A stretch of DNA of 64,000 nucleotides, from positions 2,953,373-3,017,372 of the forward strand of contig CAJINV010000009.1 in assembly GCA_905178155.1 (NCBI GenBank), read 5' to 3'. Position numbers and translations under genes: made by a program. Of the stretch, positions 1 through 63,500 are shown one piece after another. Position 1 is the first letter of the stretch. The number at the start of each line of letters is the position of its first letter. The DNA comes from Amoebophrya sp. A120 (lineage: Eukaryota; Protista; Dinoflagellata). The notes below the pieces were generated by a model. It was not told the DNA's origin, did no database searches, and was given only the letters and a program-made list of their open reading frames with translations.

Positions 1-77
1 AGCACTTGTGGCCTCCTCATGATACGCCACCCAGCATCACAAGTTTATTCCAGATCCAGACATATTTGCAATGCATA
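1..77. mobile_element. Introner, family A (partial, right end only)
   Basis: Right TIR ttccagatccagacatatttgcaatgcata ends at 77. Confidence 0.8.
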
Positions 78-3000
78 CTCCGGGCGGACAAACTCCCCGA
101 TGTACTCGTCCATGTGCATTTCGTATCCAACAAAAAAACGTTGTTAGTGTAAACTTGTGATGCGCAACATGCAAATTGATTGCGCCTGTTATGCTGTGTC
201 TGCATAGTAGGGTTCATTCAAGGGCGTTTTCGCGTACTAACTGCGCATGACAGGTTTTTGCTGTCATGCGAGAGATATTTGTCATGCTAATCCTCCAAGA
301 AAGTTACATCTACAATCTTTTTTTCGTGGATATTTCGGGTAGCATCTCCAGCTCTCTGGAGCTATCCACAATAAGTCTCCCGTACAACACGTACAATTTC
401 AATGAGTATACAAATGCGGTCTCTGCATGACAAAACTTGGCTCCGATCCTAGTTTAGCATGACAAGGGTTGCACTCCAAATTGGTGAAATTTATTGTGAT
501 GCATCTTGTACATGTAGTACGGGTGGAAATTTGTATTGCATAGGAGCCGCGGTGCTGCAGCACATTTTGCTCCGTTAAGGGCATTTGCTTGTGTGTACCA
601 TCTCGATCCCCCCCTGCCCCAGGAGGCGATACGAAAACGTGGTCCCCGGGAGTTGTAGAAGACGCCGCCGTGTACGGTCCGCTTTGCGCTAGATGCTCTA
701 CATGATTCTGTTGTTTCTCGAGGAGTTGAGGACCACCAGAGGAACTGCCAGCGCTGCTACCCGCTCTGGCTGCGAGCTGCAGCAGATTGCTCACACCCAC
801 TCCAGCCCTGGTTGTGCTCGAGCTCAACCTTGGGCTCGCCGAGGTGCTACCGCTCACTTGCCGACTGTACTCGACTTGCTTCTGCAGCTCTTCCAATCTT
901 TGCTGCCCAAATTCTGTCGTCGAGACGTTCATCAGGTCTGTGTTGCGATGAACAATCCAAGTCGGATCAACCTGCTGCACGAGCACACACGGGTCTTCCT
1001 GTCCCGGCTGGCGGTGGTGGTTCATCCCCGACGAGCCAGAAGGTCCGCCGCACCCCGCCGCGTTCCTGGAAAAGCGGGCTTTATCCCCGTGCGGTCCACC
1101 AGCACCAGCGCCGGTTGTCTCCGCCGGGCTGTGCGCAGAGCCAGACGCGGAACTCGATGCCACCGAGCTAGACTGGATCTGGAAATTCGCACAATCGAGC
1201 CCGTTCATGTTCATGCTCATGGTGTCGAAAACGCCTGCCTGCGGCTATCAACTGTAAAAGTGTCCGGGTCTGGAACATTCTGACGCTTGTCATGCACGTT
1301 TTGCATGAGCCCGGATGTCTGTGATGCATGCCCTAGCATCACAGATTTTTTCAGAGCTTCTTGATGCCTATGCCGAGTGACAAATGCCCTCTCCGCGTAG
1401 CAAAAGTTACACTCCTTTTGGTACTCATGCAGTACAGATTTTTCTGGAATCCAAATGCAGCATGACAAGTTCGCACTCTTCCAGACCCAGACATTTTTAC
1501 ATTTGATAGCGGCCCACCCTGCGCAAGTAGCTGCCCGTTCCAAAGCCAGTCCTGGTTCGGTCTGCTCGTCCCCTGGCCGCCGGCGCCCCCACTCTGGCAG
1601 CTCATGCCCCTCGACGGCCCGCTAGTACTCATTTTTGCACTGACCGCCTCGGCGGAAATGAGAGAAGAGCTCACCTGCGAGAGCGTGCAGACACTCCCAG
1701 GGTCGCGTGTCGGGGCTTGGTCCGTTATGCATTGCAAATATGTCTGGGTCTGGAAGAGTCGGGGTTTGCCATGCACATTTTGCATGACCAGTGTTGTCTC
1801 TGATGCTGATGCTAGCATCACAGATTTTTTGAGAGCTTCTTGATGCTGATTACGCATGAGAAATGCCCTCTCCGCGTGCCAAAAACTGCACTCCTCTTGC
1901 TGTTCATGCAACACAGATGTTTTCAGAATCCGCAGACAACATTACAAGTTCCACTCTTCCAGACCCCGACATATTTGCACCTGTTATCCGTCGTAGTCGT
2001 GCAATACGCCTCGTCAAAAGACTGGGCTGTGTCACATCTACTTTTCAACATCTTGCCACCGTGTGCTTTATCTGAACTATCGCCAAACGCTTTCGGTCGT
2101 CCTGCGGCGCCAGCCGCGTGGTCCTGATTCATCCCTTCCGACGTCTGCTCCGATGAGCCTTCTATGCAATGCAAAAGTATCGTACTCGTACTAATTGCAG
2201 TTATGCATTCCAAATCCAGATGTTACGGTAAATCCGCATTACAAATTGCATTTCTAGTGCTGAGAAAATTTGTATTGCAATCACTACTAGTACGATGCTT
2301 TTGCAGTTCATATCTTCTTGATGACTACTATTCTCCGGAGAAGGGCAACAAGAATCGTCGGGAACAGCAGGTGGACCACAAGCCGGGGAGGATCTAGTAC
2401 AAGCCTCGCCGACATCAGCACTGCCTTGCTTCCGCTCTTGCTGATCCACCACGTTAAGACCCTGCTCGGACACACTGTACAAGCCCGACAGGATGGTTGC
2501 TGTACTAGGATCCACCACTCCCGGCGGAACAAGGTTCTTCTTGCTCACCGCCACGGTTTGATCATGTGCACTTGAAGAGTTCGTAGTTCCGTTCTTTGAT
2601 GTCGCTTGCTCCGAACCGACGTCAGCGCCGTCCTTCATCTCTTGGTCCTCGGCCGCATGTAGTTCGCTCGTCAGAACACGACTGCGGTCTTGTTCTTCCG
2701 GGGGCCCGGCGGCCTTTTTAGGTGCACGAGCCATTCGTGCAGCCGCGGCGCCCTCCCGGTTGTTGTAACCAGCACATTTATCCGAGGAAAAAAACTATGT
2801 TTAGTGGACTAGGTGTCTTGTAGTGACAGCATGACAAATTTGTTCTGCATGAAAGAGAAAAGCTGTCGTGCGCTGCTAGGATGTGGAAACGCATAATATG
2901 AAAAGCTGAGAACTTCTCTTGATGGCTGCCCAGCATGAGAAATGTAACTGTGTTGCGTGCTTTGCATTACAGACGAGTACTCTATACACTTACACAGTTT

Positions 3001-6000
3001 TTTCTTGCATAACGTTCCCGAGCCATGCACTGCTGCAAGCGCGCAAGAATCTCGAGGCGTCGCTCCTCGCCCTCCGCATCTTCTTCTGTGTCAGGCTGGT
3101 TCAAACGGGTTTGTCCAAACACAAGGGATTGCATTTGCAGCGGTTGTTCGGACAAGCTCTCGACATCAAAAACCGCACCTGCGCGTGGTCCACCCCCATG
3201 ATCTCCATGAAAGGAGGATCGTAAGGAAAAATCCCCCCTCCCCATATCGAAAACGTATCCGTCTGAAAATTTGTGATGCGCATTTGTGGCCTCAAATCCT
3301 GTCTGTCTTGCAAGAAGGCAAGTCCAGAAAGCGCTCCGCATTTCGCAGGCGGTTTGTGATGCTGTTGGGCTTAGAGCATACACGTTTGTCATGCTAGGGG
3401 CCTACGTCAAAACCTCTCGACTGAGGCTTGGCATATGCCTGCAGTCCTCTACTGCAAGACAAATCTGATGTGTGTACGAAAATCCAGCATCAGAAACTTC
3501 GTTTCGATATGGGGAGGGGGGATTTTTCCTTGCAATAAGGAGGATCCCACCGACTCGGTTACCGAGGTCTGATCAGAGGTACAACGGCCACCGTTTGCGA
3601 CGACCGGCGGGCCGCCCTGGTGGCTGACAGCGATCATTCCGACCTGAGAGGACGAACCACTGGCACTGCACTGCTCGCTGAACCCGCTGTCCACCCGGGT
3701 GTTGCTTGCCTTGCTGCTTTTGCTCGAGACCCGCTTGTTGGTCGAAGGGGATGGGGCGGCCGTCGTTCCCGTTCTGGATGAGTCTGATTTCATTTCGATA
3801 TCGTGGTTCGACATTTTTGCTGTAGCACTTGCACTTGCACTCTTTGATACAACTACCTGCTCTTCTGGAAAAATCTTGGTGAAAGAGGTCTGCTTTTTCG
3901 AAGTCGACGATGAAGATGCTCCTGCACCAGTAGCACTCATATCCCGCCTGGAGCTTCGAACTGGCGAATTCCCGCTTCTGTTTGAGGAAGCACTGCCGGA
4001 GGATGCAACGATGTCCGATGCGTGGGTCGCACTTCTGGGCCCCTCCAACGCGCTCTGCTCCGGTAAAAACAAGCTGCTGGTGCAGGCGTGGTCTTCTGGT
4101 GCACCAGGAGGGATCATTTTCTCCTCGTCAGTGCCCATACCCTCGAGAACTTCCTGAAGGCACTTTTGCGAAACGTAAATGTTGAACAGTTCTTTCTTGT
4201 CCTCGAGGTTGTCGTGCTCTTCTGCTGCATTGGTGTAGTTCCGGCTATAATTACCGTTTTGCAATGGAGGTTGACCACCGTCCAAAGCTGCGCCTGCCCT
4301 GGAAGCAGGAGCTCCATAGACCGTAGGAGTAACACTAGTACTACCCCCAGCGGCAGGAGCATCTTGCTGATTATACAACGAAGCTCCAGCGTACGTCGCA
4401 GACTTTCTCTTCTGCTTATTACTTTGCTCCACCCCACCGGCACCTGCTCTGACCTTCGAATCATCTGTCCTCCGCAACTGCAAAGCAGTTTCATTTTCAA
4501 AGCCTGGCTCTACAACTCCACCAGATTGATGTCCATCTCCTGGAACGACCGGACTACAGGGTAGAAAATCTTCGGACCAGGCCCGATTTGCGCAAAAGGG
4601 CTTCGTAAGATTCTGGGCACTCGTGTTAATCGGAGAGACTTGTTTTTTTGTCAATCTGGAAGCTGAGCCACCAGAAGACGAACTAGCACTTCCGCCATTG
4701 TTCAAGAGTAGAGAAGTGGGTCGTTGTAGTAGTGCCATCGCGTATTTTTTCGGCAGCTTTAGCTGGATCAACTTGCTTATCAAAAGGAAAAATCCCCCCT
4801 CCCCCTACTTGAAAGGCATGCTTCTCAAAGTTTACGCCGCTGATTTGTGGCCACAAATCCTGTCATCTCTCCTGCAAGAGGGCAAACTCAGAGGCTCCGC
4901 CGCGATTATATGCGGGCGACTTGCAATGCTGCAAGGCCTATAGGGCAGACGTCTGCCATGCTAGGCCCCTATACCGGGAGGCCCTCCCTTAGGCTTACGA
5001 TCTGCGTGCATTCCTTTACTGCAAGAGAAATGTGATTTGTGTACTCAAATACAGCAACACGACAAATTTCGTTTTCGATATGGGGAGAAGGGATTTTTCG
5101 TGCTGATATTGCTCCCACTTCCACTCGACGAGGCGGATGAATCTATTTGGGATAAAAATTGTGCCTGATTTGCTGCCCATTCATGCTGCTCGTACTGTTC
5201 TACATCCATGGCGAGTAGCTTGTCAATGTTTTGCTCTTCGTCTACTTCTTCAACAGAATCTCTATCACCACGACCACCACCATGATGCTGCGGCGCAAGA
5301 GGATCCTCTTCGTTTTGAGCAATTTGAAGCAAACTGCACTCGCCTGACTGCGTGCGGTGCTTCGAACCGCTGCTGCCCGACGTCGAGGAGTGATCTTGCA
5401 ATTGCGAGTAAGGATTGATGTTGGTGCCTGCTGCAGGAGTGTGGCCGTTGTTGCGACTAGTTGTAATATCGCATGAAGATGATGATCTTCCCATTTCGAC
5501 ATCTTGCTCACCATCCTCGCAAGAAGAACCCTTACGCGCAGTGCAGCCGCGCTGCTGGTGCTTATTTGTCCTGCGAGTAGAGGTTTTCTTGCGTCCTCCT
5601 GCTCTGTGTGTATCTTTGTCGTGATGTTCTTCTTGCTCCTCATCGTCCTCATCATGCTCCGAACAAGACTTGGAACGATTTCCCGCGGCAGCGGCCCGGG
5701 CAGCCGCAGTAGAACTACTTTTCGACCGCGAAAAACTTGTTGTCCTTTTGGGGCAACAGGAGTAGTACCCCCGGCGGAGCAGCGACATCCTTTCATCAGC
5801 ACGACCTCCTCCCGCAGCTGCAATCGCGCTGGGGGATGAAGCAGCAACTACCCCTTGTTCATCGTTCGCCCCCATTTCAAGATCTTCAACGCCCCCAGCA
5901 TTTTCGTGCGCCTTCTTTTTGAAAAACGCCCCGATCTCCTTTGCCACACAAAAGTGACACCCTCGACACAGAGCGAAGAACACCGGAAACACCAGGGCCA

Positions 6001-9000
6001 CGGAGGCGAGCGTTGCATGCTGTGTAAAAACGTCCCCACCCCAGAGTTGCATCCGTATGCAAATCTGCATGCCAAAAAAGTTTTCTTGCGGAGCCCCATG
6101 AGAAGCATTTTCTAGGCGCGTGCAGGCGTCTGTGGCGCTAGATTCAGCATGATATGCTAGATTTGTGACGCTGCTGAACTAGCTGAACCAGATTACTACA
6201 CCATGAGGGCAAATAACTTATCATACGAATAAACAACCAAAGCTGGTGGATTTGTCTAGCAGATTTTATCCCATCTTGACTATGGGGTGTCGTGGGCCCC
6301 GTTTTTACACAGGATACGTTGCGATTTGTCGTTTGTAAAGGTGTGCGTCGATCTGTTTCATGATGGTCTCCCGCGAGTTGACCAGATTCGAGCGCCAAGA
6401 GTAGATTTTTAGGTTCAACAGCTGGGGAGAGTTGCAGGTCTGCATCTCCAGGGTCGATTCCTTCTTGCAGTCCTGCAACAGCGGCAAAATTTCGTCTTGA
6501 AACCAGTGCCGAAGAAACTCGTCCGCCCGTTGCGCACTCTCTTCGGATAAAAGCCAGTCGCAGGAACATAAACCCTTGTGCTTGTTGTTCATCTCGCGCC
6601 GGCGGGCAGCTCTGTCGTGGTCTGCCGGGGGTGTATCGATTTGATGGTTGCTGCTCTCGCTCAAACCGACGACGAGAGGGCCAGTAGTTCCCGAGGATGC
6701 GTCGCCACTGGACGTGGAAGCTATGGCGTTCTCAACTGTTACATTCTCAACTGTTGCATGGATTTGTCATGCAAAATTGCCATAAGCAACCGCACGACCA
6801 AGCGGCTGCGCATGACAAATCTCCGAAGGGCTAAACAGCATGGAAATCTGTGCCAAACTTGTGATGCTAGAGTTGCAAGGTCCTCCTTTTCACTTTCGCT
6901 TTTCTTGCATCACAAATTCATGTGACAGTTGAGAATGTAACGTTTGAGAATCCCATAGAAGCACTTCCGGAGGTCGGGCGGGGGTTCCCGCCTCGCAAAT
7001 GACTGTGATTCATTTCGCTAGTACCAGGATCATCTTGGTCAGCATCGGCACTCACAGCTTCTCCGCCGGAAGAAGACGAGGACGAAGTAGAAGTTCTGCC
7101 CGACGGGGGTAAAGTGGACAGCATCACCCCGGGTATGCATTGCAAATATGTCTGGGTCTGGAAGAATGCGACATTTGTCATGCTAGTCTGGCATGTCGAC
7201 ACTAAGCTCTGTATTGCGTCGCGACGAAGAGCTCCTCTTTTGTGTCACGCAAAGTGGCTGCATCTCATGCCGAATACGCAACACAAAGCTGCGGAAAAAT
7301 CTGTCATGCTTGGCGGTGCATATACAGTGTGCTTACTTTTCACTTACATGCATCACAAGTTTCCAGACCCAGACCACATATTTGCAGTTGATACCGGGTG
7401 GTGGAATGCTCTTGAGGACTTGCTCCAGGAGCGTGGTCCCCTCCTCCGAAAGAGCGCCAAGCGGGGAATTCTGGAACGTCGGAATAATTTTGGATTTGAT
7501 TATCCCCAGGAACAAAAAACCAATCTGTCATGCAAGGACCAACGAATTTGTTTTTGTAGGGTGTCGATGTCGTGTTGTTATTTTAATTTTTGTGATGCAA
7601 AATAATTATAATAATACAAAATCTGGTCCGGGCCTCCGTATAAATATAATCTATAGGAGGCCTCTACTAAAATAATTCTAAACGAATGTGCTTAGAAGGT
7701 CTCGTCTAGAAGCTTCGTGTAACAGATTCAGCGCCTCCCCTGTATCTGTACGCCATACCGTCGCGCCGAATGTTATGCTGCACGCCCTGGCGAGCCGCAG
7801 AACAAAGCCGCGCATCCGCTTCAGTGGGATTTTGATACAGAAAGCGTCGACAAGCCCGACTGCCCCTGTTTTCCTGCCCGAAAACAGGGATCAACTCCTC
7901 GGCCATCACTCTCCGGCATGGCAAAGGGGATGGCCAAGAGCTCCCTGGCCATCCCTTTGCCTTCGCTCGGGCAAAAGTGATGGCCGGGAGCTCCTTGGCC
8001 ATCACTTTTTGCCCTTGCTTTTCGCTCGGGCAAAAGTGGTGGCCAGAAGCTCCTCGGCCATCACTTTTTACTCGGGCATGGGACACGGGCTCCTTGGCCG
8101 TCACTTTCGTTCCGGCCGGGCCAAAGTGGTGGCCAAGAGCGCCTCCTGGGTGGCCCATCGTTTCCGGTCGGGCAAAGCGATGGCCCAGGGGTCCTTGGCC
8201 ATCACTTCGCGGCCGGGCTGGGCAAAAGTGACGGCCGCGAGCTCCTTGGCCATCATTTTTGGCCATCATTTTGCCGGTCCAGCAAAAGTAATGGCCCGGC
8301 GCTCAACATCCGGGGCCATCATTTTTCGGCCCGCCGGGCCAAAGCGATGGCCAAAAGCCTCCCCTGGGCCATCACTTCCCGATCGGGCAAAAGTGATGGC
8401 TGGCCAAGAGTTCCATGGCCATCAGTTTTCGCTCGCTCGGGAAAAATTGGTGGCCAAGAAGAGCTCCTTGGATGGGCGCCGCTTTTGGACATCACTCTCC
8501 GGTCGGGCAAAACTGACGGCAGGGAGCCCCTTGGCCATCAATTTCCGCTCGGGCAATCAAAAGCGACGGCGTGGCCAGGAGCCCCTTGGCCGCCACTTTT
8601 CACTCGGGCAAAAGTGAGGGCTGCGAGCTCCTTGGCCATCACTTTCCGGTCGGGCAAGAGTGAGGGCCAGGAGCCCCCTGGCCATCGCTTTCCGGCCGAG
8701 CAAACGTTATCCCCCGTCTCCCGTCCCCGGGCAAAAATGGCGGCCAGGAGCTCCGTGGCCGTCCATGACATTCCGCCCGGGCAAGCAAGGCGATGGCCAC
8801 CCAACAGCAGCTCCATCCTCGGCCACTACTTTTGGCGGCCATCGCTTTGCTTCCGGTCGGGCAAAAGTGAGGGACGAAAGCTCCTTGGCCATCACTTTCC
8901 GATCGGGCAAAAGTGGTGGCCGAGAGCTCCTTGGCCATAACTTTTGGCCATCGCTTTTCGCCCGGGCAAAAGTGATGGGCAAGAGCCCCCCGGCCCTCAT

Positions 9001-12000
9001 GTCCCGGCCAAGCAAAAGTTGTGGCCAAGAACTTCGCAGCGGTCACGTTTGGCCACCACTTTCCGGGCGGGCAAAAGTGATGGCCAGAAGCTCCTTGCCC
9101 AGCCGGGCGGGGCAAAAGTGAAGACGGCGAAGGGCTCCTTGGCCATCACCTCCGGTCGAGCAAAGTTGAAACTTTTGGCCATCACTTTCCGGCCGGGCAA
9201 AAGTGGTGGCCAAGAGCTTGGCCCTCACTTCCCGGTGGGCCCGCCGTGCAAAAGGGGAGGCCAAGAGCACTTTCGGGACGGACAAAAGTGATGGGCCGGG
9301 GCTCCTTCCTTGGCCATAACTTTTGGCCATCGCTTTCCGGCCGGGGCCGGGCGGGCAAAAGTGGTGGCCAAGAACTCCGTGGCGATCACTTTTTGCCACC
9401 AGTTTCCGGGCGGGCAAAAGTGATGGCCAAAGGCTCTTTGCCCGGCCGGGCTGGGCAAAAGTGACGGCGAAGGGCTCCTTGGCCACCACCTCCGATCGGG
9501 CAAAAGTGAAACTTTTGGCCATCACTTTCCGGCCGGGCAAAAGTGGTGGCCAGGAGTCGGGCGAAACTGATGGCCAGGAGCTGCTCGGGCATGCATCGCT
9601 TTCCTTTCGGGCAAAAGTGGCCACTTTTCGCTCGGGCCAAAGTAATGGCCAAGAGCTCCCTGGCCACCGATCACTTTTGGCCACCACTTTCCCGTCGGGC
9701 AAAAGGGATGGCCAAGAGCTCCCTGGCCACCCATCGCTTTCCGGCCTGGCAAAAGTGATGGCGAAGAACTCTCTGGGTGTCGCCTTTCGGCCGGGCACAC
9801 GTGATGGCCAAGAGCTCGCTGGCCGTCAAAGTGGCCAGCGATCGCAGCTTCTCGGCCGGGCAAAGGTGATGGCCAAGAGCCCCGCGGCCATCGCTTTTCG
9901 CTCGAGCAAAAGCGATTTTGGCCATCGCTTTCCGGTCGGGCAAGAGTGGTGGCCAAGAACTCCGCGGCCATCACTTTTTGCCATCGGGCCGGGAAAATGA
10001 ATGGCCAGAAGCTCCCTGCCCATCACTTTTCGGCCGGGCAAAGAAAAACGATGGCGACAACTCCTTGGCCATCACTTTAACTTTTGCCCACCACTTTCCG
10101 GAGGGACGGGCAAAAGTGGTGGCCAAGGGCTCCTTCCTTGGTTGGCCATTACTTTTGCCCAGCGCTTTCCTGTCGGGCAAAAGTGATGGCCAGTAGCTCC
10201 GCTGCCACCGCTTTTCGCCCGGGCATGCGAAAGTCCTCGGCCATCACTTCTGGCCATCGCTTTCCGGTCGGACGGGCAAAAGTGATGGCCAAGAGCCCCC
10301 TGCCCATGCATCCATTTCCGGTCGGGCAAAAATGATGGCCAAGAGCTCCGTGGCCAGCCATCGACTTGCGCTCGTTGGCCATCATTTTCGTTCCGGGCGG
10401 GCAAAAGTGGTGGCCAACCGCTCCTTGCCCGGGCCATCACTTTCGGCCATCGCCTTCCGGTACGGTCGGGCAAAAGCGATGGCCAAGAGCTCCCTGGCCG
10501 TCATTTTCGACCATCAGCCACTTTCTGCCCGCGCGGGCAAAAGTGTTGGCCAAGAGCTCCGCGGCCACCACTTTCGGGCCGCGCAAAAGTGTTGGCCAAG
10601 TGCTCCATGGCCATCATTTTTGCCCATCATTTTCCGGTCGGGCAACCGGGCTGCAAGAGTGGTGGCCCAGAGCTTCCAGGCAGTCACCTTTTGCCGCCTC
10701 TTTCGTTCCGGCCGGGCACGCTTTTGCTTTCCGCCTTCCTTCACTTTTCTCGCGCACGCTTTTGCCTCTCGGCTTCTGGGGCATGGCATGGGCGGGGGTG
10801 CGCGAGGCAAAACCGCGCGAACAGGCCCCCGGAAGCGTGGGGCTCATCCTCATCAAGGGGGGGGCGGGGGTTTTGTTTGCGCCGGCCGCCGAAGCCGCCC
10901 CAGAATAAACTTCGCAACCGGCCCCCTTCGCTTTGCTTGCCGCGTGCGGCTAAAGGGTTGACGGCGGGCCGGCGTCCTGGACGCCGGACCGCAAAAGGCG
11001 TTAAAGCGGCGATGCCGCTAGGGCAAGCGCAAGCGCGGCAACGCGGCTAAAGGGCTGACGGCGGGCCGGCGTCCTGGACGCCGGACCGCAAAAGGCGTCG
11101 AAGCGGCGAGGCCGCTAGGGCAAGCGCAGCCAGGCGCGGCAACGATCTTCCTCGGGGCAGGCAGCGTCATACTTTTCAACCTTCTAGCCGCATTCTACTC
11201 GACTCCAAGCCAAACCTTCTAAACGCATTCCCATGATCTTTAGAATTATTTTTAAATCTACTAGCCCAGCGGGCGTCCTGGACGCCCGCGTCCAGAGGCT
11301 AGTAATAATAAGCAAACTGTGATGGGTTTTATTTTCTGTGGATATCAATCTCGCGGATGACCGCCCGCCTCAGCGTTTCTCTCCACGACGCAGATATCAA
11401 ATGCAAAAGTGTCTGGGTTTGTCATGCATATTTTGCATGACCCAGAATTATGTCTGTAATGCATGACCAAGCATCACAGATTCTGAGAGGCCTTCCTGAT
11501 GCCTATTCCGCATGACAAATGCCCTCCCCGCGTAGCACAAACTGGACTCCTCGTCTTGCTGGTCATGCAATACAGATTTTTTTACAGTCCAGAGTTAGCA
11601 TCACAAGTTCCAACCTTCCAGACCCAGACATTTTTGCAATCCATAGCAGAAGCGTTTTGCAGGTTTTCTTCTGCTTTCTCCCGGTCGTGGCTATCATTAT
11701 AAGTGGGCTGCGCGTCGTGCTCAGGGTCGTGAAGGTTCCCCGCTGGAGCTGGTGCTGGTGCACTACTGGCATTTATTCCGGCGGCCGCGCCAGGAGAAAC
11801 GGTCCCGTGACTATCGCCAGCAGCAGCTGCAGGTCCTGAAGTAGAAGTACTCATCGAATTAGCAGAATTATCACTACTTCCGATCATATTAAACTTCTCG
11901 TCGGCAACCTCTTCCGCCAGCACTTCCATCTCGTGCGACAAAGCAGACAGACACCCATACGCCTCCCGAGATTGGGTGACCAGACCCGTGTTGCCGTCCA

Positions 12001-39763: not shown

Positions 39764-39972
39764 ATTTCCTCGTGGTCGTGCGGTTGAATCAATTCTAGTT
39801 TTACGAAGGTACGTACACTAGACCTAGCTACTTAATGAAGCACAATTCCCGCATGATTTGTGCTGTTTATCGGAATCGAAAAGTCGTATACTCTCTCGCG
39901 CTTTAGTTCTTAAAAGAACACCTTACCAAGATAGTACTCAAATCCTGTACTCAGAAGTTGGGTACGCCTAGG

Positions 39973-40203: not shown

Positions 40204-40453
40204 GCGTGGTGCCAGAAGCGAAGGTCAAGGTCGTAAACAACTCCAAAGTAAAATGTTTTTTGACTTTGACATACGGAGAGACGTGGACTAGATCTTAATC
40301 TTGTCCTTCAAACAGTGATCTTGAGGATAAACCGCTTGGTTACATAGTCCCAAGAACTGGTTTGAGCCTGACACTGCTGAGATTCGCTAGGTTCACGAAG
40401 CGCTTAGACCGTTCAGTTTAGGTTGTTGTAGGTAGCAGGGTTCTCCTGTCTAT

Positions 40454-41893: not shown

Positions 41894-42203
41894 TTTGTCG
41901 ACTGACCAATACTCAGTACGAATGGCATTGCTTTGCAGAATGAAACTTCTTCTGATACAAGTACGATGGAGTGTCCGATCTCTCGGGTAGACCAACCTCC
42001 AAAATTCATCGTTTCCCTCGCAATTCGCAAATTCTCCCAGTGAAGTAGCACCTGCCAACGTAGCCAATCTAAGCTGCTCTCCCCTCCGCCTGCTGCACAA
42101 GTGGGCATTGAAGCAACATCCTAGAACACGCTGAGTCCAACTCCAACACAGAATCTACCAAAATCTGAATCTTCAGAATCTCTATGTATACCGTGATGCT
42201 AAC

Positions 42204-43565: not shown

Positions 43566-43780
43566 CTTGTAGGTGCTGCTTTGTTTTTGGCCGTTTTCCG
43601 AATTTTATGTGGTAAAATGGCACGCTTTGTCTCTACTATGGTGTCTCGCTCCCTCTCAGGTTTCTCTCTGGCATGTGCGCTCTAAACTGGAAATGACAGG
43701 AAAACGCCAAGCATTTCGGCCGTCTAAATAGGCGAACAAGACTTTTCACATGGGCGAAGAAATCTCTCCCCTGGGGGCTG

Positions 43781-44986: not shown

Positions 44987-45541
44987 ACACGTCTATAACC
45001 GCTACGAGTAGAAGCAGTAGCTGGAAAAAGCGCTCCAAGGAATATTAAAGCAGCTTCGCCGCAAGAACAGAAAATGCCGGACTGAGTACCAGCGACTAAA
45101 ATTTTTCCTGTTTTCATCTGCTGTTGTTGAACTCATTTGTTTAAAACCCAGGCGTGTACTTACAGTGTGCCTTTCAAAGGCGTGGCCGCCGTGTCCAGTA
45201 CGCTCGTCATTGTGATTTTCTTTGAAACTGTCTCTGATGTTCTGAAGATTGTACACGAAGAAAAAGTAGCTAATTGATTGGTTGCAAGGCAACTCTGTTG
45301 TTCCGAACGAAATCGTAAAAGGCCAAGGTCTGAAAACTCTATCACTATCTGTACTTCGTCGATTGCGCCTCCTTGCGTTTCAAAAAAAGTCAATGCGCAG
45401 GCGTCTGTTGTGAAGTAAATTGTTCGAAGTCAGTGTACTGTAAATTGTTCGAAGAAGTTGTGCAAGTACTCGAAATCTTTGAAACCTAAGTAATTTTCTC
45501 TTCATTAACATAGCCCTGAGTCGCCCGTCACAAGAATAAAC

Positions 45542-54500: not shown

Positions 54501-57500
54501 CGGCGCCCACTTGGGCAAGTTGGGAACCCTGAACCCGGCCCAAAAGCCAGGCGGCCTCTTGGCTCCAGGCTCTGTCTCGAACGCGGGGGGGGGGCGCGCG
54601 AAGCTGGCCCCCATCGCTGGCGCCGTACGTTCCATTTTACGCGCAGCCAGCGGCTACCGGGCCGGCCGGCTTGCTGCGTAGAGCAAGCTGGATGGCGGCC
54701 CCGCTCGGTTTTGCCGCATGCAGCTGAGCGACGCACGCGAAGCGCGGCGCCGGCGGACTCTTTGGGAGCGGAGGGCCTGCGCGTGGGCCGCCTGTGGTTT
54801 GGCCTTTTCTTTTTTATCATACTAGCGGAAGGGGGGTGGCTCCTGTAGCTCGCCGGCCCGCTTCGCGCGGCCGGCGGGGTGGCTATGTGCCAACGCATCG
54901 GGGCCACGCGGCCAATGGGCGGGCGCCGCACGGAAATGGCCGCGCCGGGCTGCATGCCTGCGAGGCAGCAAAATGCTGGCGGTCCGTGCAGTTGGCACAG
55001 CACCAAGATGCGCGCAGCTTGCTTGCAGGGGAACTCACTCCGGGCCTGGCCTGCTAGCTGCGCTCCGTAATATTTTGGGCCAGCTACCTGCGGGCGCGCA
55101 TGATGGTCCGTCCAAAGCATTCACAGACCGGCCGCGCGAAATGGCTGCCGGGCCGGCGCGGGCAACATGGGACAGGGCCGGCTGCAGCGGGTTGTTGTGG
55201 GCCGTCCATCGCCGGGAAGATAGAAAGCGCCGCCCCCTAGCCCGCGCAGCTGGTCGCCAAACTACTTCGGGCAGGCCCCCTCGCTGGTGGTTGGGCGGCC
55301 GGGCCACAGGCATTTCGGCAAAGCCCATAGCGGAGCCGGGCCGGGCTCGAGCGCGTGAACCTACCGGGCCGGGCCGGCAAGCTACGCGAACCAATTGGCC
55401 GGGCGGCGACAGGGGGGCCGGGCCGCAAAGCAGCGGACCCGACGGCCGCACCAACCTAGGCGGGCGCCCCCGGTAGCTGCCCGGCCCGCCGATTCACCGA
55501 GGGGCGCTGGCGGACCAACTGTGTGCGCGCGCGTGCAGCTGGCCCAGGCAACGCGGAGAACTGTCGGGGCGCCAGCTGCTAGCTTGCTTGTGGGCCAGCT
55601 TGCCTAGCCTTGCTAGCCCGCAACCGGAAACGCGGCGGGCCCGCCTAGCCCGCTCGCCCGCTTTCCCCGGGCGGCTTCTATGTAAGCAAGCATAGCCGGT
55701 GGCGCACCTTGCTGGCCCGCCCCAGCTAGGAAGCCAGCGGGGCGCGCGGCCGATGCATGGGCGCGAGCCTGGCCAGGCTTGGGCCGGTGCGTCGTCTACT
55801 GTGTGTGGGCCCGCCCCCGTTTGTAGTTGGGGGAGCGGGGCCCGCAGTGTGTAGCTTGTGGGGCAGCTGTGTGTGGGCGCGGCGCATGTCGCCCGCCCCC
55901 GCAACAAATGGCGCGAAAGGCGGAAAAGCCGGGCCAAAAACAAACACGCGCGGCACTCACATGTAGACGGCCCGCGGGCGACGGCAGGCAGAGGGCCGTA
56001 GTTGGGCCCTCTGGCCCCGCGTCTAGTCGGGGAAGGGCAGCACATAGAGGGGAGGCGGCTTCATGTGGGCGCACGCAGGTAGCAGCTTCAAGCACGTGGG
56101 CCACGCAACTACAAATCCCCAAGCGCGTTGGCCCCCACCTTACCACCACCCCGGACCAGAGGTCGGCCACCGGCTTGCCGCCCCCCCTCCGCCCCACCCG
56201 CCCGATGGGTGTATATGGGAAAGGCCGCGGCGCCGGCCCGTTTCTTTGCCATTGGCCCTCCGGCCCGGCTGGTCTATTTGTAAAAAAAATTTTACAAGTA
56301 GCGCGCGCCCGGTAAAAGTGTTCGCACAAACAGCGCGCGGCCTGTTGTAAAATTTTTTTTACAAATAGCGAGCGCGCTCCCTATGGAAGTGTTTTGCCAC
56401 GTTAGCGGGCGCCCCACTTGTTGGGAAATAATGTATGGAGGAGCCACGCACGGGCCGCGAATTGCTTTGCAAGAAAGTAGGGCCCCGCCCCCCCGCGCGG
56501 CCGGCGTTTGCCAGCCTTCAGACGGGGCGGGCGCCGGCTTGGTGGTGGCCCTTGTCTCTGCGAAGGTTCCCGCGCAAGCCGACCCCCCCTCGTCTGTCGG
56601 TGTCGGAAGGAACGAAGCCGGCCGGCGCAGTCCTCCGCCGGCCTGCTAGCCTGCCCCGGCCCCGCGCGCTTCCTTGCCGCCCAGCCAACCTGCCAGCCGG
56701 CCCCCGCCTCGCCTGCTCCCAGCCTGCCCCGGCCTACAACTTGGGGGGTCCACTTGGTGCCATTCAGCAAACTATCCACCGCGCGCGGCCGGCCCTGCTT
56801 CTTGCTTGTCGCCGGCCGCCGGCCGGCTCGAATCGATCCCACCCCGCAAAGGCAGAACCATTGCCAAGGGCCGGGCGGCCACCAACCTCTGCCGTTTTTT
56901 GCATGCGCGCTCTGTCTGCGCGAAGCGGACACGGATGGACGGGGCGTGGGGTGTTCTCGCCTCCTTTGCTTTGCTTGAGTGATCGGCTAGCTACCTAGCC
57001 CCGCCGGCCGCTGCTCAACGGGCGGCGGGCGCGGGACAATGCCGGCACATGTCGCCCCCCGCCGCCAGCTCGGGCCACTCGCCCGGCAGACCGGCCAAGC
57101 GCCTTGCACACGGGCGGGCGGGCGCCAAAGGCTTGGCGGTGTGCTGCGGGCTGCGCCCGAGCCGGGCGCGCGGCCGGGGGTTGCGCATTGGGGCGGCAAG
57201 CGCCCGCCCCGGCTCGGTGGTGGCGTTGCGCACAATGCCGGCGGGCCGATTGCGCCGAGCCGCGAGGCGCCCGGCCCAATGTTTGCCGCACGTCGAGGGC
57301 ACAACATTGGTCGAAAGGAGGCGAGCTGTGGACGGCTATCAATGGAAAAAAGCATCGCAAATGCCTTGCCTGTGGCGGACCAATTTGGACACCCAGGGCA
57401 CTTGCGCCTGGTCCCGAGGGGTGGCTCTAGATCCTAGATCCCTTGAAGATGCAGACGCAGCTGCAGCGGATGAAGCTCCTTACTTTGTGCATGCGCAGGC

Positions 57501-60500
57501 AGCTTTTTTGCCTTTTTTTAGCTTCCGACCGATGCCAAGAAGCTGGAAAAGCAGCTTCTTCAGATGCAGAGTGGCACTTTTTACGATGCAAAATGGTCTT
57601 CCATTGATGAGCATTTGTGACGTTTTTCGACAGTGGCGCCATTGTTGCCGCTGTGATTCAGGCCGTCCAAACCAACAAGAGGGCGTCTTTGTCGGGCTCC
57701 GGAAGTCTATGACTTGCAATACGGCTTTTGTTCGGGGCTGGATATTTTCACTTCGTAGCGGGGGGGCGGGCATCCCAAATATCTCGCTTTTGCATCACCT
57801 ATAGACACCCAGAAGCCTCTTTCTGTATTCGTGAAGGCGTCGAGCGACCCTATTCCACATGCCAAAGGCACACAGCAGGCACGCACGCGCGCGACTATGT
57901 AGAAGAAGCGAACGCTCAGACTACTTGTAAATCCGGGCGCCGAATGCAAGCTACTTCATTGCAAATCATAGAGCGAGAAAATGATCTCCGTTTCCCATAC
58001 TCGCTTCAAGGAGCAGCTGCAAGAACATGATCTCCATTTCCCACACGCGCTTCCCGGAGCAGCCTGGTGTGTCCGTCTCCTCACCTCTCCGTCGCCGGCC
58101 CGGGTCCTAGCTAATGATGAGCTGAGCATGCTAAAAATGAATCAAGCTATTTTTGTAAAGTAGCTACTTTTAGTGAAATCATCGGAGTCGACGTTTTGCA
58201 ATTTTTCATCGAAAGTAGCTACTTTTGCGAAAAATGAAAAACCAAAAAAAAAGTGGTAATTTTATGCAAAAAAGTTGGGTAGCGCACTTACGAGTTGAAA
58301 ACTTACGTTTTGAGGGGGCCATATCAGCACCACAAATTTTCCAAACTGAATAGCTCAAATTTGTGTTGCAAAGGAGCCCAACAGCAGCCGGATCTCTTAT
58401 GCAAAAGACACCTTGCGCACCTAGATTCTGCACCAGAAAGGCTCGCAATCCTTTCATGCATCAAGACAAAAAGCTTTTATTTGGAAACTTTGCATGAGAA
58501 ACTTTTGTAACTTCCGGGGTGGGGGCATTTTTCATTGCAGTACTACCGTCGTCCAGTTTTGTGACCGCTTGCGACGCGGAGCTCGTCGACATCCAAGCGG
58601 TGTTTAAGGCTGCGGATTGGGCGGACGTGGCCTGGATGCCAAACTCGACGTAGACTCTCGCGTTAGTAGTCGATCCAGATGACTCGGTAGACGATTTGGC
58701 TGTCTTGCGGAGAAGCTGCACGGCAGAGAGAATCGGTCGCTGGTCTTTCGGTCCTCGACGTAGTTCAGCATTGATACTGTTTTGCTTTTGGACGACGTGA
58801 TTTCTACTATTACTTTCTTCCTCATACCGCAGCACCCTGGTGCTTGTGTTTCTTCTCTTCTTTCCCGCCGCTGCGGGTGAACCACGAACATCTTCCCCTT
58901 TTTCCAGAAACGAAGCCGATGACCCTCCGTCCGCGGATATCTCCGAAATAAAAGCCGCTGCGGCGGAAGAACTAGTAGGGCTCCCAACGCTCCACGCTAA
59001 ATTCAATGACACAACTTGATCCTCGGTTAAATCACTAACCCCGCCCTCGTCCTGGAACCACTTCACAATCCCAGTCCGCAGCGCGTTCTTGAACCTATGG
59101 ATTGCAAAAATGTCTGGGTCTGGATCTGGAAGATTGTCATGCTAAATCCGAATCATGCAAAAATCTGTGTTGCATGAGTGCCAAAAGCTGTCCACTTTCG
59201 ACCAAGGAAGTTGGGAGGGAGTTTCTCATGCAGGATAGGCATGAAAGAGACCTCACAGACTCTGTCATGCTAGGTCCTGCATTCCAGACCTCAAGGGTCC
59301 TGGAAAACCTGCATGACAAGTTTACACTCTTCCAGACCCAGACACTTTTGCATTTGATAGAACCCTGCGTCAGACAAAACCGCTTGCAAATCGCCCTGCG
59401 CCGAGCCGGAGCCGCTATTCGCCAAATCCAACCCAAGGTCGACTTTCCGCAACTGGACGTCTTGCCTCGCTTGAGTGTGCTTCTTGATCACTAAGTTCTC
59501 AATACCCGCGGCCGCCACTTCATCCTGCTCGACGTGAACCAAAGCGGAATACTCCCCCTCGTCGTCGTCCACATGCTTCCAAATGTCATCAACCGCCTGC
59601 TTCTGCTCATCCGAGTTCGTTTGGATTTCGAAATGAACATCCAGCGTTTCGTCCTTTTTTGTCGCGTTGTAATCGGTGAGGACGAAAATGAGAACCTGAT
59701 TTTCCTCCAAATGCAGACTATCAAATGCAAAAATGTCTGGGGCTGGGAGATTCTGAGACTTGTCACGCACGTTTTGCATGAGCCATGATGTCTGTGATGC
59801 ATGCCGTAGCATCACAGATTTTTCGGGGGGTTCTTAATGCCTATTTCGCATGACAAATGCCCTATCCGCGTAGCAAAAATTGCATTCCCTTTGCTACTCA
59901 TGCAATACAAATTTTTTTGGAATCCAAATGCAGCATCACAAGTTGCATTCTTCCACCAGACCCAGACATTTTTGCATTTGATACAGACTGTCGTCCGTGA
60001 GTTTCATGTTGGTGTAGTCAACCACGCCCTTTTTGATCGCTTCTTCAAACGTAATGTTGTGCGCCGCAACAGTGACGTTCTCGTCGCTTGGTGCTGTTTC
60101 GAGGAACTGATGATGTTGCAATTTGCCAAGGCGCCTCGATGTTGTTTTCGCCAATAAGCTGCTGAGCGAAGATGAGTCACTTTCCGTCAGTTCCAACTCT
60201 ACCTCGAAGCCCCCGGAAACCTCGGATTTGGTGGGCGACGGACTGGGGGACGGGCTTGGCGATGGGGATGGGGATGCTGGTGTTGGAGATACTGGTGCTG
60301 GTGTTGGCGCCGCTGTTGTAGTCGTCGAGGTTGTACTTGTTGTGGTTGTAGTGGGCAAAACCGGATAGAGCTTCAAGTTCAAACTAGTAATATTCGCCAG
60401 ATCCACTTCGTACTGTTCCAAATCGACCAACGCCCCGTACTCGCTACTACTCAAATCCGCTACCATGTTCCAGATTTCTTCCACTTTCTCCGCCTGCCGC

Positions 60501-63500
60501 ACGGTCAACGACTGTTCATTCATCAGACTGCTGTCGATCTCAAAGGTAACGGTAATTCTCGGCTCAGAAATAGTGCTGGCGTCCGACTCGTTGACGTGTA
60601 AATTCCTGACTTGTTGCTCGGTCAGTTTCAAATCAACTTCTACTATCTTGTCGTTCGTGAAGCTAAAAACGCCTTTCTTCATGGCGTCCTGCAAAGCCGG
60701 GTCGTAGAGAACGTGCTCCGCGATGTGGCCAGGACCGGCGGATACTTTTTGAAAAAACGACGACGATGATGATGTACTAACAACAACCTCCGCCATCAAC
60801 ATCTCGAACTGTTTCATCTGCAACAAATGCACGCAATAGGTTTTGTCACTACTCACTTCGTACGAAGCGTCCACACACGATTCGCACTTCTGCGCGTCTT
60901 GCGCCGGACAATCTACCCCCTTCGCGCCGACCCCGAACCCGCACTGGCAGACGTTTTCGTTGCACCGCCCCTGCGGATCGCTGGTACTCTCGTGATACCC
61001 CGCGTCACAGTTGCCGCAAAGCTCCGTGTTGTGCACCGTGCAATTCTTTCCCGCCGCGGCGATTCCGTGGTTGCAGGTACAGATGTTGACTTCACACACA
61101 TCAACATTCAAGTGGTACCCGGCGAAACACGAGCTGCAGATCTCCGCGTGGTCCCCCGTACACGCGGCGCCGGTCGCGGGCACGCCGTTGGTGCATTGAC
61201 AGATAAGGACGGTGGAAGTCGTGGATGTCGTCGATGTCGTTGTCGAGGTGGTTGTCGTCGCCGTACACACTTTGCTCCCCGCGACCATCTCGTACTCGTC
61301 GGCGCACACGGTGCAGATTTCCATCTGGTCGCCGGTGCAAGAAGTCCCGGTCGCCGGCTGGCCGTGGGCGCACGTACACAGGTTGTTCAAACACTCGCCG
61401 GCAGTTGTGCCCTGTCCTGTTCCTAAATGGAATCCCGCATTATGCATTGCAAATATGTCTGGGTCTGGAAGAATGCAACTTGTGATGCTGCATTTGGATT
61501 CCAAAAAAATCTGTATTGCAGGAAGGGCAAAAGAGGTGGTCTCCTTGCTACGCGGAGGGGGCATTTCTCATGCAGTACGGGCATCAGAAAGCCGTCGCAA
61601 TATCTGTGATGCTAGGGCATGCATCACAGACATCGCCGGTGATGCAAAATGCGCATTACAAACTTCCAGACCCAGACATATTTGTAACCCATACGCATCA
61701 CAGCTTTCGCACTTCTCCGGCGTCGGGCTCGCGTCGCACTCCGTGCCGGTTATCAGGTGCAAAAACGTCTGGGTCTGAATGAATGCAGAACTTTGTCATG
61801 CATCTTTTGGATCGCGCAAATGGTCTCTAATGCACGCAAAAGCATTACAGATTTTGCACAGGCCTCCATTTGATGCCTAATCCGCATGAGAAATTCCCTA
61901 TTTGCGTAGCAACAAATGGCCAGCTCTGGGCGTTCACGCAATACAAGTTTTTGCCTATTCCAGAATCGGCATCACAAGTTGCAACCTTCCAGACCCAGAC
62001 AACATATTTGCATTTGATACCGGTCTTCGGCGTGCCGTTGGCGCAGGCGCAGGAAGCGGAGCTGTCGAGAGCGGGCGGTGTTGTGGTGGTTGTCCCTGCT
62101 GGTGCTGCCGTCGTTGCATAAGCCACGCAATGCGAACTCGCGCTGTCTAGGTAGTGGCCACTGTCACAGTGCACGCACTTCTCCTCCAGGTTGTTCGTAC
62201 ACTCTGTGCCGGCCGCCGGAGTCCCGTAGGCGCAGGTGCAAATTGGTGATGATGCTCCCACTCCGCCAGTCGTGTTACCATTCCCGCTGGTTGAACTACT
62301 AGCAACACACGTCATACCACCCCCAACATCCAGCTCGAACCCGGCGTTGCACTGCGCACACTTTTCCGTGTCAGTATCCCCGCAGTCCGTTCCCGTTGCG
62401 GGTGTGCCGTTGGTGCAAGTGCAGTGATCGGTCTTCAACTCGGTTGAAGATGATTCTCTACTGGAATAAATGGAAGACGACCCCGCATGACCGTCGAGAT
62501 GACTTTCGTTCTCTTCCAAAAGAGACATCGAAGAGACCGCGGCCTGTTGTGCAGCGGGGGTTGTAGTACTCGAGCTGGTGCTAGTCGTCGTTGAGGTTGT
62601 CAACACCGCCTTGTGCTTCTCGTCCTGGGAACAGTCATGCACCACCTCCGCCAAAAGCTCGTGCCGGAAGATTTTTTCCATGCAGGAGTCGTAAAAGGCG
62701 TTCGCGTTTGCGCAACAGGGATCTACTCCCGACGTAGAACTAGTAGTTGTACACTGCCCACCCGTTCCTTTCCCGCTGTTGTACCTCTGCTGGCAGGTCT
62801 CGCATGGAGAGAAAAAAGTTTGCCAAAGTCACTAACTTGCAGGCTTTGCATTACAAATTTTTTCAGCGTCGCAACTTCTCCTTGTATTGCAGAAACACTA
62901 GGGAAGTCCATTATGAAGTTTGGCTGTGATGCATTTTTACGCATGACAGAAAAATTTGTATTGCAAAAATGCGCATGAGTGATCGTGACGCACTTTTTTT
63001 GTTTGATATCTCGACCGGCATGCTCACTCCGTTCCAGTTCTTGGTTTCGTAATCTGCTTCCGGCAAATCGTAACACGTTTCCACGAACTCTTTACACGCG
63101 GCGAGACAGTGGGTCGCGTTGGCGTTTACCGTGGTAGTGTCCCCGCTGAATAAATCCGTCACCGGGTCGATCTGCGACATGTGCCAGCATTTTTCCCAGA
63201 TTTTCTCCTCCCTCCGGAACTCGCAATGCTCGCAGTCGGAGCACTTGAAAAACCCGTGTTCCGGTGTATCCGTCTTGCTCTTGTGGCAGTTCCCCCCCAT
63301 AGCAGTGGTGTCGTCGGCCAGGGTCTTCGGTTTGCACCGGTAGCCCTGGTCGAAACGGGCGGGGTCCATGCGCCCGTCCTCCAGGTAGTCGCAGGGGCTG
63401 GTGGTGGCGGAGGCGGGGGGAGGTGTAGTAGCAGACTGTGCATGATGCGACTGTTCAACAACGGCGGAAGCAGTGGGGACCGTTGCGGTAGCGTTTAGCA

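Follow-up and report, generated by a model that had tools for sequence, protein, structure and literature searches.

Amoebophrya removes tens of thousands of non-canonical introns. The locus analysed here (the window, a stretch of 64,000 nt) bears on the route of their removal through a dense series of inserted elements, which the initial annotation had described as about 36 introns sharing one end rule: TAT...ATA termini, a flanking 5-bp direct repeat (TSD) and no GT-AG. The host is established by a window exon matching, at 100% identity, a protein that carries the label Amoebophrya sp. A120. Together with the ends, repeats, families and RNA removal described below, this bears out the assignment to Amoebophrya introners, an element class that is already published.

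The end rule and its elements

The window holds 35 complete TIR elements plus one that is truncated at the left edge (ending at 77), as the initial count implied. Exact TAT/ATA is present at both ends of 28/35 elements, and one end is variant in the other seven (CAT, GAT, TAA or TAC read inward). Of the abutting direct repeats, 27/35 are perfect 5-mers, six match at 4/5 and one at 3/5 (7501); in one element (13766) the repeat is displaced by 3 nt. Perfect abutting repeats of 3, 4, 6, 7 or 8 bp were not found among the 35 elements. In a second assembly 243 of 321 TIR elements have a perfect 5-bp repeat and, as in the window, none has a perfect 6-bp repeat. Over 70 ends, positions 1-3 read T 67, A 70 and T 66 times, positions 11-13 read A 61, 65 and 65 times, and TA starts 67 ends. 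The consensus on both ends is TAT-N4-TG-N-AAAAA, and the TSD is without sequence preference. When TAT...ATA termini, a perfect 5-bp repeat on the flanks, a TIR of at least 12/20 and a length of 100-600 bp were all required, the window returned 21 matches; 200 local shuffles returned none in 181 cases and one in 19. The initial observation is confirmed, with corrections on boundary sliding and on the size of two elements that are given below.

Clustering of 37 pieces gave families of 14, 6, 2, 2 and 2 with 11 singles, and near-full-length relatives of 31 of the 35 elements (short copies and the outer parts of the two giants) occur in the second assembly. Family A occurs in both orientations (9:5 in the window, 11:13 in the second assembly). 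Unless stated otherwise, all features below are on the minus strand. Family-A introners with perfect TSD lie at 1246..1508, 11395..11645, 59719..59983 and 61751..62019, at 1726..1986 and 46207..46463 with one variant end, and in opposite orientation at 7134..7393, 13393..13644 and 61441..61693. Further family-A copies are 23133..23386, 28040..28305 and, in opposite orientation, 59096..59359, and BLAST of family-A copies placed the edge-cut element (1..77, one end only, ATA at 75-77) in the same family. Family B comprises 4778..5108, 14791..15111 and 25477..25787 (perfect TSD), 3217..3537 (perfect TSD, one variant end), 12505..12825 (TSD 4/5) and 21603..21939 (opposite orientation). Related pairs are 124..332 (209 bp, perfect TSD) with 27710..27924, 21264..21542 with 6016..6316 (both with perfect TSD, the latter with one variant end), and 14199..14507 (perfect TSD, upstream of a long gene's first ATG, in its leader or intergenic) with 15185..15484 (TSD 4/5). 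The remaining short introners with perfect TSD are the singleton 363..542 (180 bp), 6722..6957 (236 bp), 12209..12436 (228 bp, complete within one DNA-type contig), 32725..32933 (one variant end, in a histidine-phosphatase gene) and 62803..63008 (206 bp, one variant end); those with TSD 4/5 are 2163..2312 (150 bp), 2779..3011 (233 bp) and 22491..22797, and in 13766..13931 (166 bp) it is a 4/5 repeat that is offset by 3 nt. Seventeen elements interrupt one host gene (78..14026), which is open at the window edge and encodes at least 2019 aa once they are removed; no Pfam match was obtained in the exons scanned. Another host gene (45545..63702, 1523 codons stop to stop) carries seven and, judged by eye from its sequence, looks like a Cys-rich membrane protein.

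Reading frame and transcripts

At 30/35 sites the longest ORF is obtained by cutting out the element together with 5 nt, a test in which +5 is indistinguishable from +2 or +8; it is uninformative at the other five (124, 363, 14199, 21264 and 21603). At 13766 the frame is kept by +5 and by +8 removal alike. To this extent the claim that removing an element with one repeat restores the frame holds. In the second assembly a 972-bp member interrupts the RPB1 motif, which is regained without an extra residue only by +5 removal, in a restored stretch of 25 protein letters. In the same assembly, one stop-codon case requires the upstream TSD copy at base 3. The initial annotation also stated that no GT-AG can be built by sliding the boundary. 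This is true of 31/35 sites, which offer no GT-AG, GC-AG or AT-AC option; four sites do have one (GT-AG at 46503 and 59096, GC-AG at 22491, AT-AC at 14199). Two GT-AG options in 35 equal the chance rate, and among 98 oriented elements seven have one (5.7 +/- 2.1 expected). Downstream exons begin with C29 G27 A22 T20, which indicates no flank preference. An ordinary GT-AG intron of 113 nt is present at 25200..25312 (an RNA-type record breaks at 25196), so canonical splicing coexists with introners.

Transcript evidence was taken from the assembled contigs of one study, labelled 'RNA?', which show exact loss of the element with one TSD copy at 6/35 sites and are consistent with removal at non-canonical borders at seven more; the RNA test thus extends to 13 of the 35 elements, the 3.8-kb one not among them. 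In a 2124-letter RNA-type contig, gaps of exactly 55 letters (the pair sum for 21264 and 21603) and 329 letters (22491 and 23133) match the prediction for four missing elements. The junction of 59096..59359 is directly readable in RNA-type contigs, the length of one is consistent with removal of 28040..28305, and another breaks at the flank of 27710..27924. Only eight reads and one read could be placed from two raw RNA runs. One RNA-type run, X3, contains unspliced element junctions too.

Giant introners and a hairpin that lacks introner ends

Two elements, at 7501 and 46503, measure 3.8 kb and 12.0 kb, unlike the usual short copies; neither was found described in the literature searched. The larger one (46503..58542, 12,040 bp, TSD 4/5) belongs to the second host gene. 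It consists of a 308-bp outer introner (46503-46596 plus 58329-58542) in which an unstranded foldback element of 11,727 bp is nested (46597..58323), with TAT...ATA ends and its own perfect 5-bp TSD. The inverted arms of about 5.3-5.7 kb are 82% identical, rising to 98% in the outer 300 bp; GC is 65%, and there is no Pfam match. Very long non-coding inverted arms are typical of foldback elements, and an intron within an intron is a twintron; the present foldback differs from the known cases in that it has introner ends and sits inside another introner of an expressed gene.

In 4/4 RNA-type runs of the one study, position 46497 is joined exactly to 58543, which removes 12,045 nt, the element with one TSD copy. 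In each of these runs (one sample label) a single contig of 4.8-5.0 kb spans 58543-59095 with no other letters, its loose ends being window positions 46468-46497 and 59365 onward, and no retained-intron contig over 58480-58542 was present in any of the four. The imperfect TSD locates the cut: the upstream copy is retained at least through its third base. A GT-AG slide would retain the other copy, which the contigs lack; the available GT-AG option is therefore not used there, a reading that depends on one base (46500) at one site. This supports the expectation that mRNAs would not turn to GT-AG sites, as do the exact removals at the 6/35 sites.

The smaller giant (7501..11344, 3,844 bp, TSD 3/5) comprises an outer element of about 163 bp and a nested insert, and is predicted from sequence to be removed as one intron; a 2073-aa ORF survives only with +5 or +8 removal. 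The insert (7622..11302, plus strand) starts with TC, ends with CTAG just after a GC hairpin, sits between A and T without TSD and contains a 46-bp satellite. Helitrons are recognised by a TC start, a CTRR end, a hairpin just before the end, insertion between A and T, and no TSD, and by these terminal hallmarks the insert is Helitron-like. Its six ORFs gave no Pfam match, and no copy was found in 551 kb of loci.

A different case is a 531-nt hairpin at 34162..34692, built of two truncated family-A halves facing inward and flanked by a 73-bp exon duplication. It is without outer TAT/ATA, 5-bp TSD or GT-AG. It is excised as an intron in the public model for a 2OG-Fe(II) oxygenase gene, the one source for its removal, and this intron may well be explained by a reverse-transcriptase template switch.

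Route of excision and comparison with known systems

We consider the following account somewhat more probable than not. The elements (A120 introners) are non-autonomous TIR transposons; a single DDE transposase of integrase type likely put them in place, and they are likely excised from pre-mRNA by host machinery that reads the paired ends, not GT-AG. The transposase would insert these MITEs in either orientation with a 5-bp TSD. The 5' cut would fall no more than 2 nt from UAU and the 3' cut 3-5 nt beyond AUA, the simplest geometry being exon|UAU...AUA-NNNNN|exon. The TIR stem would draw the cuts together regardless of what lies between, and an introner could thus be a safe harbour for nested transposons. 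Least certain are the identities of the two enzymes: the machine may be a modified major spliceosome and the mobiliser IS3EU/GingerRoot-like. In Farhat et al. 2021 (PMC7789003), U2, U4, U5 and U6 are reported for A120 and U1 was not found.

The structure-guided aspect of excision, as first proposed, drew no signal from tests of RNA pairing and stays conjectural. There was no sense-strand excess of G-U over A-C (24:27 in the window, 91:84 in the 98 elements of the loci, 147:171 in the giant arms), and 54 nearest-pair contrasts left little of the end-to-end covariation at positions 10 and 14 (p 0.53 and 0.02, six positions tested). Terminal bases pair with their mirror at a mean predicted probability of 0.6-0.85, with a low of 0.42-0.48 at positions 6-7, and positions 4-7 are frequently unpaired. 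Since the TIRs are symmetric, sequence-reading proteins account for orientation independence equally well.

Of the rival routes, we regard as doubtful, though deserving of attention, an end-guided RNA cut made without the spliceosome by an endonuclease and a ligase, with circles or linear RNA as products; this route has been proposed for euglenid nonconventional introns. The disuse of splice-site dinucleotides, the failure to find U1 and the Euglena introns with TIRs and fixed 3-nt and 5-6-nt spacers, reported to leave as circles, would suit such an enzyme; A120 still has canonical introns and U2/U4/U5/U6, however, and in a tunicate the spliceosome is reported to excise non-canonical introns of MITE origin. 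We know of no candidate enzyme. Programmed DNA excision from transcribed nuclei, for which ciliate IES and Tec/TBE elements provide the parallel, would explain why the ends are of transposase type, why removal is exact and leaves one TSD, and why an RNA-strand G-U bias is lacking. It is improbable given the genomic contigs: in a run of unspecified life stage, DNA-type contigs cross element junctions at single-copy depth (41-48) and agree with them letter for letter over 16,239 bp; the 15 joints listed include none of an empty site (379 further joints exist). The unspliced junctions in X3 also speak against it. The genomic check thus disfavours removal at the DNA level.

Skipping of the element by RNA polymerase II is very unlikely, given the same unspliced junctions. 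At the TIRs the template would fold out, and the nascent 3' end would re-anneal at the second TSD copy. Such skipping predicts a retained upstream copy and success in either orientation and at any length, but TSD mismatches are spread over all five positions (8, 5, 3, 3, 5), and to our knowledge no nuclear polymerase skips elements efficiently. Hardly credible is the view that the junctions are reverse-transcriptase template-switch artefacts: a hairpin with short flanking direct repeats is a known substrate of such artefacts, but reading frames demand the removals at 30/35 sites and in the RPB1 core motif, and the 12-kb element left no retained-intron contig in any run.

Returning to the pre-mRNA cut by a host machine, its strongest form is tentative and, in our estimate, would more probably fail than hold: excision blind to length and orientation, its geometry fixed as exon|UAU...AUA-N5|exon, would take precedence over GT-AG even at sites that offer it and would also clear 12-kb nested foldbacks, Helitron-loaded copies and end-less hairpins, so that most 'diverse' A120 introner classes would be one integrase-type family with transposon cargo. 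If true genome-wide, a fixed geometry would offer a defined substrate for finding the excision machine and would explain the harmless pile-up of transposons in coding exons. Natural test cases come from the window itself: 12 kb excised exactly, past the original study's length limit, a GT-AG that is available yet unused (46503), a site that distinguishes a 5-nt ruler from repeat-guided joining (13766), and a hairpin that lacks proper ends (34162..34692).

In Farhat et al. 2021 (PMC7789003), A120 introners have an inverted repeat of TAT, seven variable bases and then As, a length of about 240 nt, direct repeats 3-5 nt long (one example being of 5 bp) and RNA-seq-supported non-canonical borders; the window elements show this pattern (TAT, seven variable bases, at least three A). 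Introns were mapped there up to 10 kb and those of 40-1000 bp analysed, which places the 12,045-nt intron outside that study. In the sections consulted, repeat length and cut position are treated as variable and the cut was not located via imperfect repeats. That study found no transposase in A120. We searched 38 ORFs from the two giants and 10 from two longer copies and obtained no Pfam match. Dataset S2 of Gozashti et al. 2025 (PMC12130899) lists family 38 of A120 with '5-bp TSD, TA/TA termini' and integrase-like homology, alongside 57 other A120 families, most of them TIR DNA of unknown superfamily; the TA/TA note is given for one family only. With TAT starts, a 5-bp repeat example and TA/TA termini in print, the end rule is less new than the initial annotation implied. 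Its proposal of a single integration chemistry is plausible for the window families, given the perfect 5-bp repeats of the second assembly, but does not extend genome-wide, because the dataset contains an A120 Mutator family with 8-9-bp TSD and GG/CC ends (PMC12130899). Typed lengths are mostly 100-340 bp, the sets probably include long members (alignment coordinates reach 23.8 kb), and several A120 families filed as non-LTR or with LTR homology may, in our reading, be nested cargo inside TIR introners; no statement on foldbacks or nesting was found in that paper (PMC12130899).

Spliceosomal introners that carry GT/GC-AG borders or co-opt them from the TSD (Aureococcus, Micromonas type) were rejected as a model, GT-AG being available at 2/35 and 7/98 sites, as by chance, and unused at 46503. 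IS3EU/GingerRoot elements have TA..TA or TAY..RTA termini, TIRs above 30 bp and integrase-related DDE chemistry (PMC10045372, PMC12730594). The window elements resemble them in their TA..TA termini and differ in a TSD of 5 bp, where 6 bp is usual, and in that no transposase was found by Pfam in 48 element ORFs. Euglenid nonconventional introns, which have a fixed spacer to the cuts and a proposed MITE origin (PMC12501133, PMC11282704), have a CAG/CTG core (+4..6, -8..-6), spacers of 3 nt and 5-6 nt and a purine preference at the exon start. The window elements are not of this type: their ends read TAT-N7-AAAAA, their TSD is a full 5 bp, and their flanks show no preference. What both share are TIR-paired ends, frequent direct repeats and the lack of GT-AG, and for the euglenid introns full-length circular products have been shown (PMC12501133, PMC11282704).

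Termini and target-site repeats of the introners

The genes on the minus strand of the window are split by short elements with terminal inverted repeats (TIRs). Our catalogue, compiled from scans and completed manually, holds 35 complete introners and one truncated at the left window edge, in good agreement with the "about 36" TAT...ATA elements with a 5-bp target-site duplication (TSD) of the initial annotation. The abutting 5-bp repeat is perfect in 27/35 elements, and a perfect abutting repeat of 3, 4, 6, 7 or 8 bp was found in none of the 35. A strict rule gave 21 matches versus at most one in each of 200 shuffles. A TIR scan without anchoring suffered from too much noise (4698 matches, mostly satellite and GC-rich arms, versus about 550-660 in shuffles), and a search of viral contigs with two TIR patterns returned 0 matches. 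Read inward, the 70 ends show T (67), A (70) and T (66) at positions 1-3, variable bases at positions 4-7, G at position 9 (51) and A at positions 11-13 (61-65). Internal sequences define families of 14 (two halves counted), 6, 2, 2 and 2 members plus 11 singles; orientation in the largest, family A, is split 9:5. The minus strand carries all long ORFs of the window, in keeping with reports of unidirectional gene clusters in Amoebophrya.

We confirm the feature, which belongs to a class already known from the A120 genome itself; a window exon is 100% identical to a protein labelled Amoebophrya sp. A120. According to the accessible text of Farhat et al. 2021 (PMC7789003), inverted repeats of A120 introners start with TAT + 7 nt + AAA and direct repeats measure 3-5 nt, with one 5-bp example. 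Among the 58 A120 rows of Dataset S2 in Gozashti et al. 2025 (PMC12130899), family 38 is described as "5-bp TSD, TA/TA termini" with integrase-like homology. As far as these portions of the two sources go, the end rule is thus largely published. It is not universal in A120, since one family of the same rows is a Mutator with an 8-9-bp TSD.

With the family-A end pattern, 150 loci (551 kb) were retrieved from metagenome contigs; the 76 loci listed have one common accession prefix. Loci and window may represent the same species; no protein-level overlap was found between the loci and the window genes. Among 321 elements picked by TIR and end motif, without a TSD criterion, the 5-bp repeat is perfect in 243 and matches at 4/5 positions in 44; because TAT is favoured by the end filter, only this TSD result is independent. 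The loci catalogue comprises 344 elements, 98 of them orientable by ORF, and a GT-AG intron can be obtained by sliding in 7/98 (5.7 +/- 2.1 expected). In the loci the codon phases are skewed (18/29/51, p 2e-4), but the window shows the opposite trend (14/9/6); we discarded the skew as probably an artefact of frame calling. Seven longer copies of 457-972 bp (L022:632-1465, L023:5314-5770, L044:571-1051, L045:3862-4492, L067:3317-3820, L069:6024-6995 and L071:8959-9454) have proper ends, a perfect TSD and internal inserts. A scan found no nested TAT...ATA element inside the seven, and a Pfam search of 10 ORFs from two longer copies gave 0 matches.

Reading frames and assembled junctions

Excision of each element plus one 5-nt TSD copy yields ORFs of 2073 and 1499-1523 codons, spanning 17 and 7 elements, respectively. 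This removal gives the longest ORF at 30/35 sites, which bears out the earlier claim that the frame is restored once element and one repeat are taken out. An RPB1 gene (Pfam) in the loci is split by a 972-bp member; removal of element plus 5 nt restores the conserved motif, and removal of element plus 2 nt adds one residue. The element-plus-2-nt unit is ruled out by this motif and by contig arithmetic. Searches for the annotated protein of the first host gene (78..14026, minus strand), whose sequence would have covered five imperfect TSDs, recovered no more than a 52-aa fragment and a single weak match. Three further coding regions may be mentioned here. Five tandem intronless ORFs of 400-570 codons lie at 36648-44992 (minus strand), four with a MepB-like Pfam match, which in one of the four is below the cut-off; this 8.3-kb block holds 0 introners, the neighbour genes about one per kb. 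The gene at 14.6-18.1 kb has a (TGGGA)7 microsatellite (14520-14790) in what is predicted to be its last exon; an intron may have gone unrecognised there. A proline- and glutamine-rich gene contains a 36-bp coding tandem repeat at 29796-30023.

Junctions were examined in contigs labelled "RNA?" from four runs of one study; no run covering the window is recorded as RNA. These runs behave as transcriptomes: in one of them, X3, the region 15869-20537 is uncovered and a break coincides with a canonical GT-AG intron. A 2124-letter contig omits the elements at 21264, 21603, 22491 and 23133, its gaps of 55 and 329 letters being the pair sums predicted for element plus one TSD. At the 12-kb element (46503-58542), RNA-type contigs skip exactly 12,045 nt. 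The initial annotation's proposal of removal with one TSD copy is thereby supported at the mapped junctions. Adjacent to this element, 58543-59095 is covered by one contig in 4/4 runs with 0 other letters, the loose ends corresponding to window 46468-46497 and 59365 onward. If the five other elements of this gene (45545..63702, minus strand) are also removed, the contigs would, by their length, end at 63530-63746 and 45111-45245, compatible with transcript ends. DNA-type contigs of run X1 cross element junctions at a depth of 41-48, and over 16,239 bp they contain 0 other letters. The raw RNA runs X9 and X10 (8 reads and 1 read on the window) were uninformative. In-frame GT-AG pairs occur within about 20 nt at 29/35 sites, but in the contigs they stay unused at the six sites tested.

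Giant elements and an exceptional hairpin

The 12,040-bp element at 46503-58542 is a nested structure. Uninterrupted relatives of its outer 308-bp introner align without a break across the site of insertion (80% over 310 bp), and the nested element of 11,727 bp has TAT...ATA ends and its own perfect 5-bp TSD. The inverted arms of this foldback share 82% identity as a whole and 98% in their outer 300 bp; the foldback may consist of two head-to-head units. A 15-bp motif, possibly a protein-binding site, lies near both outer foldback ends (46624, 58282) and three times (52381, 52422, 52490) in the central hairpin (52407-52519). None of the 32 ORFs tested in the foldback is recognisable by Pfam, and the 38 ORFs of both giants gave 0 matches. 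The two outer TSD copies of the 12-kb element differ (on the sense strand, GGTAG upstream and GGAAG downstream), and a one-base slide would produce a GT-AG intron leaving GGAAG. The earlier statement that no GT-AG can be built by sliding therefore fails at this site, but the contigs read GGTAG, which places the cut 3' of TSD base 3 and means that the canonical option is bypassed. The bypass depends on base 46500 being correct; window and DNA contigs agree without error elsewhere. The same bound on the cut follows from a stop-codon case in the loci. As regards the other imperfect TSDs proposed for locating the cut, the upstream copy seems to be kept at 22491, too, judging from the position at which record 9 is trimmed (22485).

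In the second giant (7501-11344, 3,844 bp), an outer element of about 163 bp surrounds a 3.7-kb insert that bears a satellite and has Helitron-like ends (7622-11302). Removal of this giant is predicted from frame logic, which requires it; an uninterrupted relative of the outer element was not found. The insert contains a degenerate 46-bp GC-rich satellite (7900-10700) and a 97-bp tandem pair (10946-11144). Literature searches on nested Amoebophrya introners, foldback introners in dinoflagellates and Amoebophrya IS3EU found no reports. Farhat et al. 2021, in the accessible text, took intron mapping up to 10 kb and restricted the analysis to introns of 40-1000 bp. Alignment coordinates of 13-24 kb in the A120 rows of Dataset S2 (PMC12130899) indicate that long members probably already belong to those families, which counts against the novelty of the giants.

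A 2OG-Fe(II) oxygenase gene departs from the end rule. There, a hairpin made up of two truncated family-A halves separates the copies of a 73-bp exon duplication, and the public gene model removes 531 nt (34162-34692, slide 2 nt) and retains both copies. The borders have neither TAT/ATA nor a 5-bp TSD nor GT-AG. Public gene models derive from transcript alignments, but this intron is part of a model and was not observed directly; it could possibly be a reverse-transcription skip, and X3 contains the unspliced junction. The halves face inward around a 54-bp spacer within 34089-34770, an arrangement that looks as if an introner-exon-introner piece had been captured from another locus by a templated process. 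In the gene model a 26-residue duplication lies near the active-site histidine.

Mechanism and known systems

The uniform 5-bp TSD and the TA-type ends indicate insertion by one integrase-type DDE enzyme. Such an enzyme would account for the single transposase-like chemistry suggested initially; the Mutator family sets a limit to this claim for A120 as a whole. The accessible text of Farhat et al. 2021 reports that neither U1 snRNA nor a transposase was detected in A120.

End-guided removal from RNA is the reading we favour; the RNA level is probable, and we lean slightly towards the spliceosome as the enzyme. As to the structural guidance proposed in the initial annotation, folding predicts a TIR hairpin, but tests for selection in favour of RNA pairing gave null results: positions 4-7 pair weakly, no block shows a G-U excess over A-C on the sense strand, and TIR covariation was not robust to a control for relatedness. 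Proteins that recognise UAU...AAAAA and UUUUU...AUA instead of pairing would fit as well. To the known class the window adds a 12-kb nested foldback that is excised exactly while a GT-AG option is bypassed, and three sites (13766, 7501 and 34162) that serve as natural test cases; these additions make it easier to test how the elements are excised.

According to the accessible part of PMC12005148, a related Amoebophrya that has U1 carries canonical introns; this agrees with, but does not prove, a connection of U1 loss to the A120 excision system. The simplest cut geometry would be exon|UAU...AUA-N5|exon, which resembles the fixed spacers to the cuts described for Euglena introns in the parts of PMC12501133 and PMC11282704 at hand. 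IS3EU/GingerRoot elements share the TA..TA ends with the A120 introners, whereas their TSD, in the available sections of PMC10045372 and PMC12730594, is usually 6 bp as opposed to 5 bp here; the A120 elements therefore "work like" IS3EU/GingerRoot rather than being members of it.
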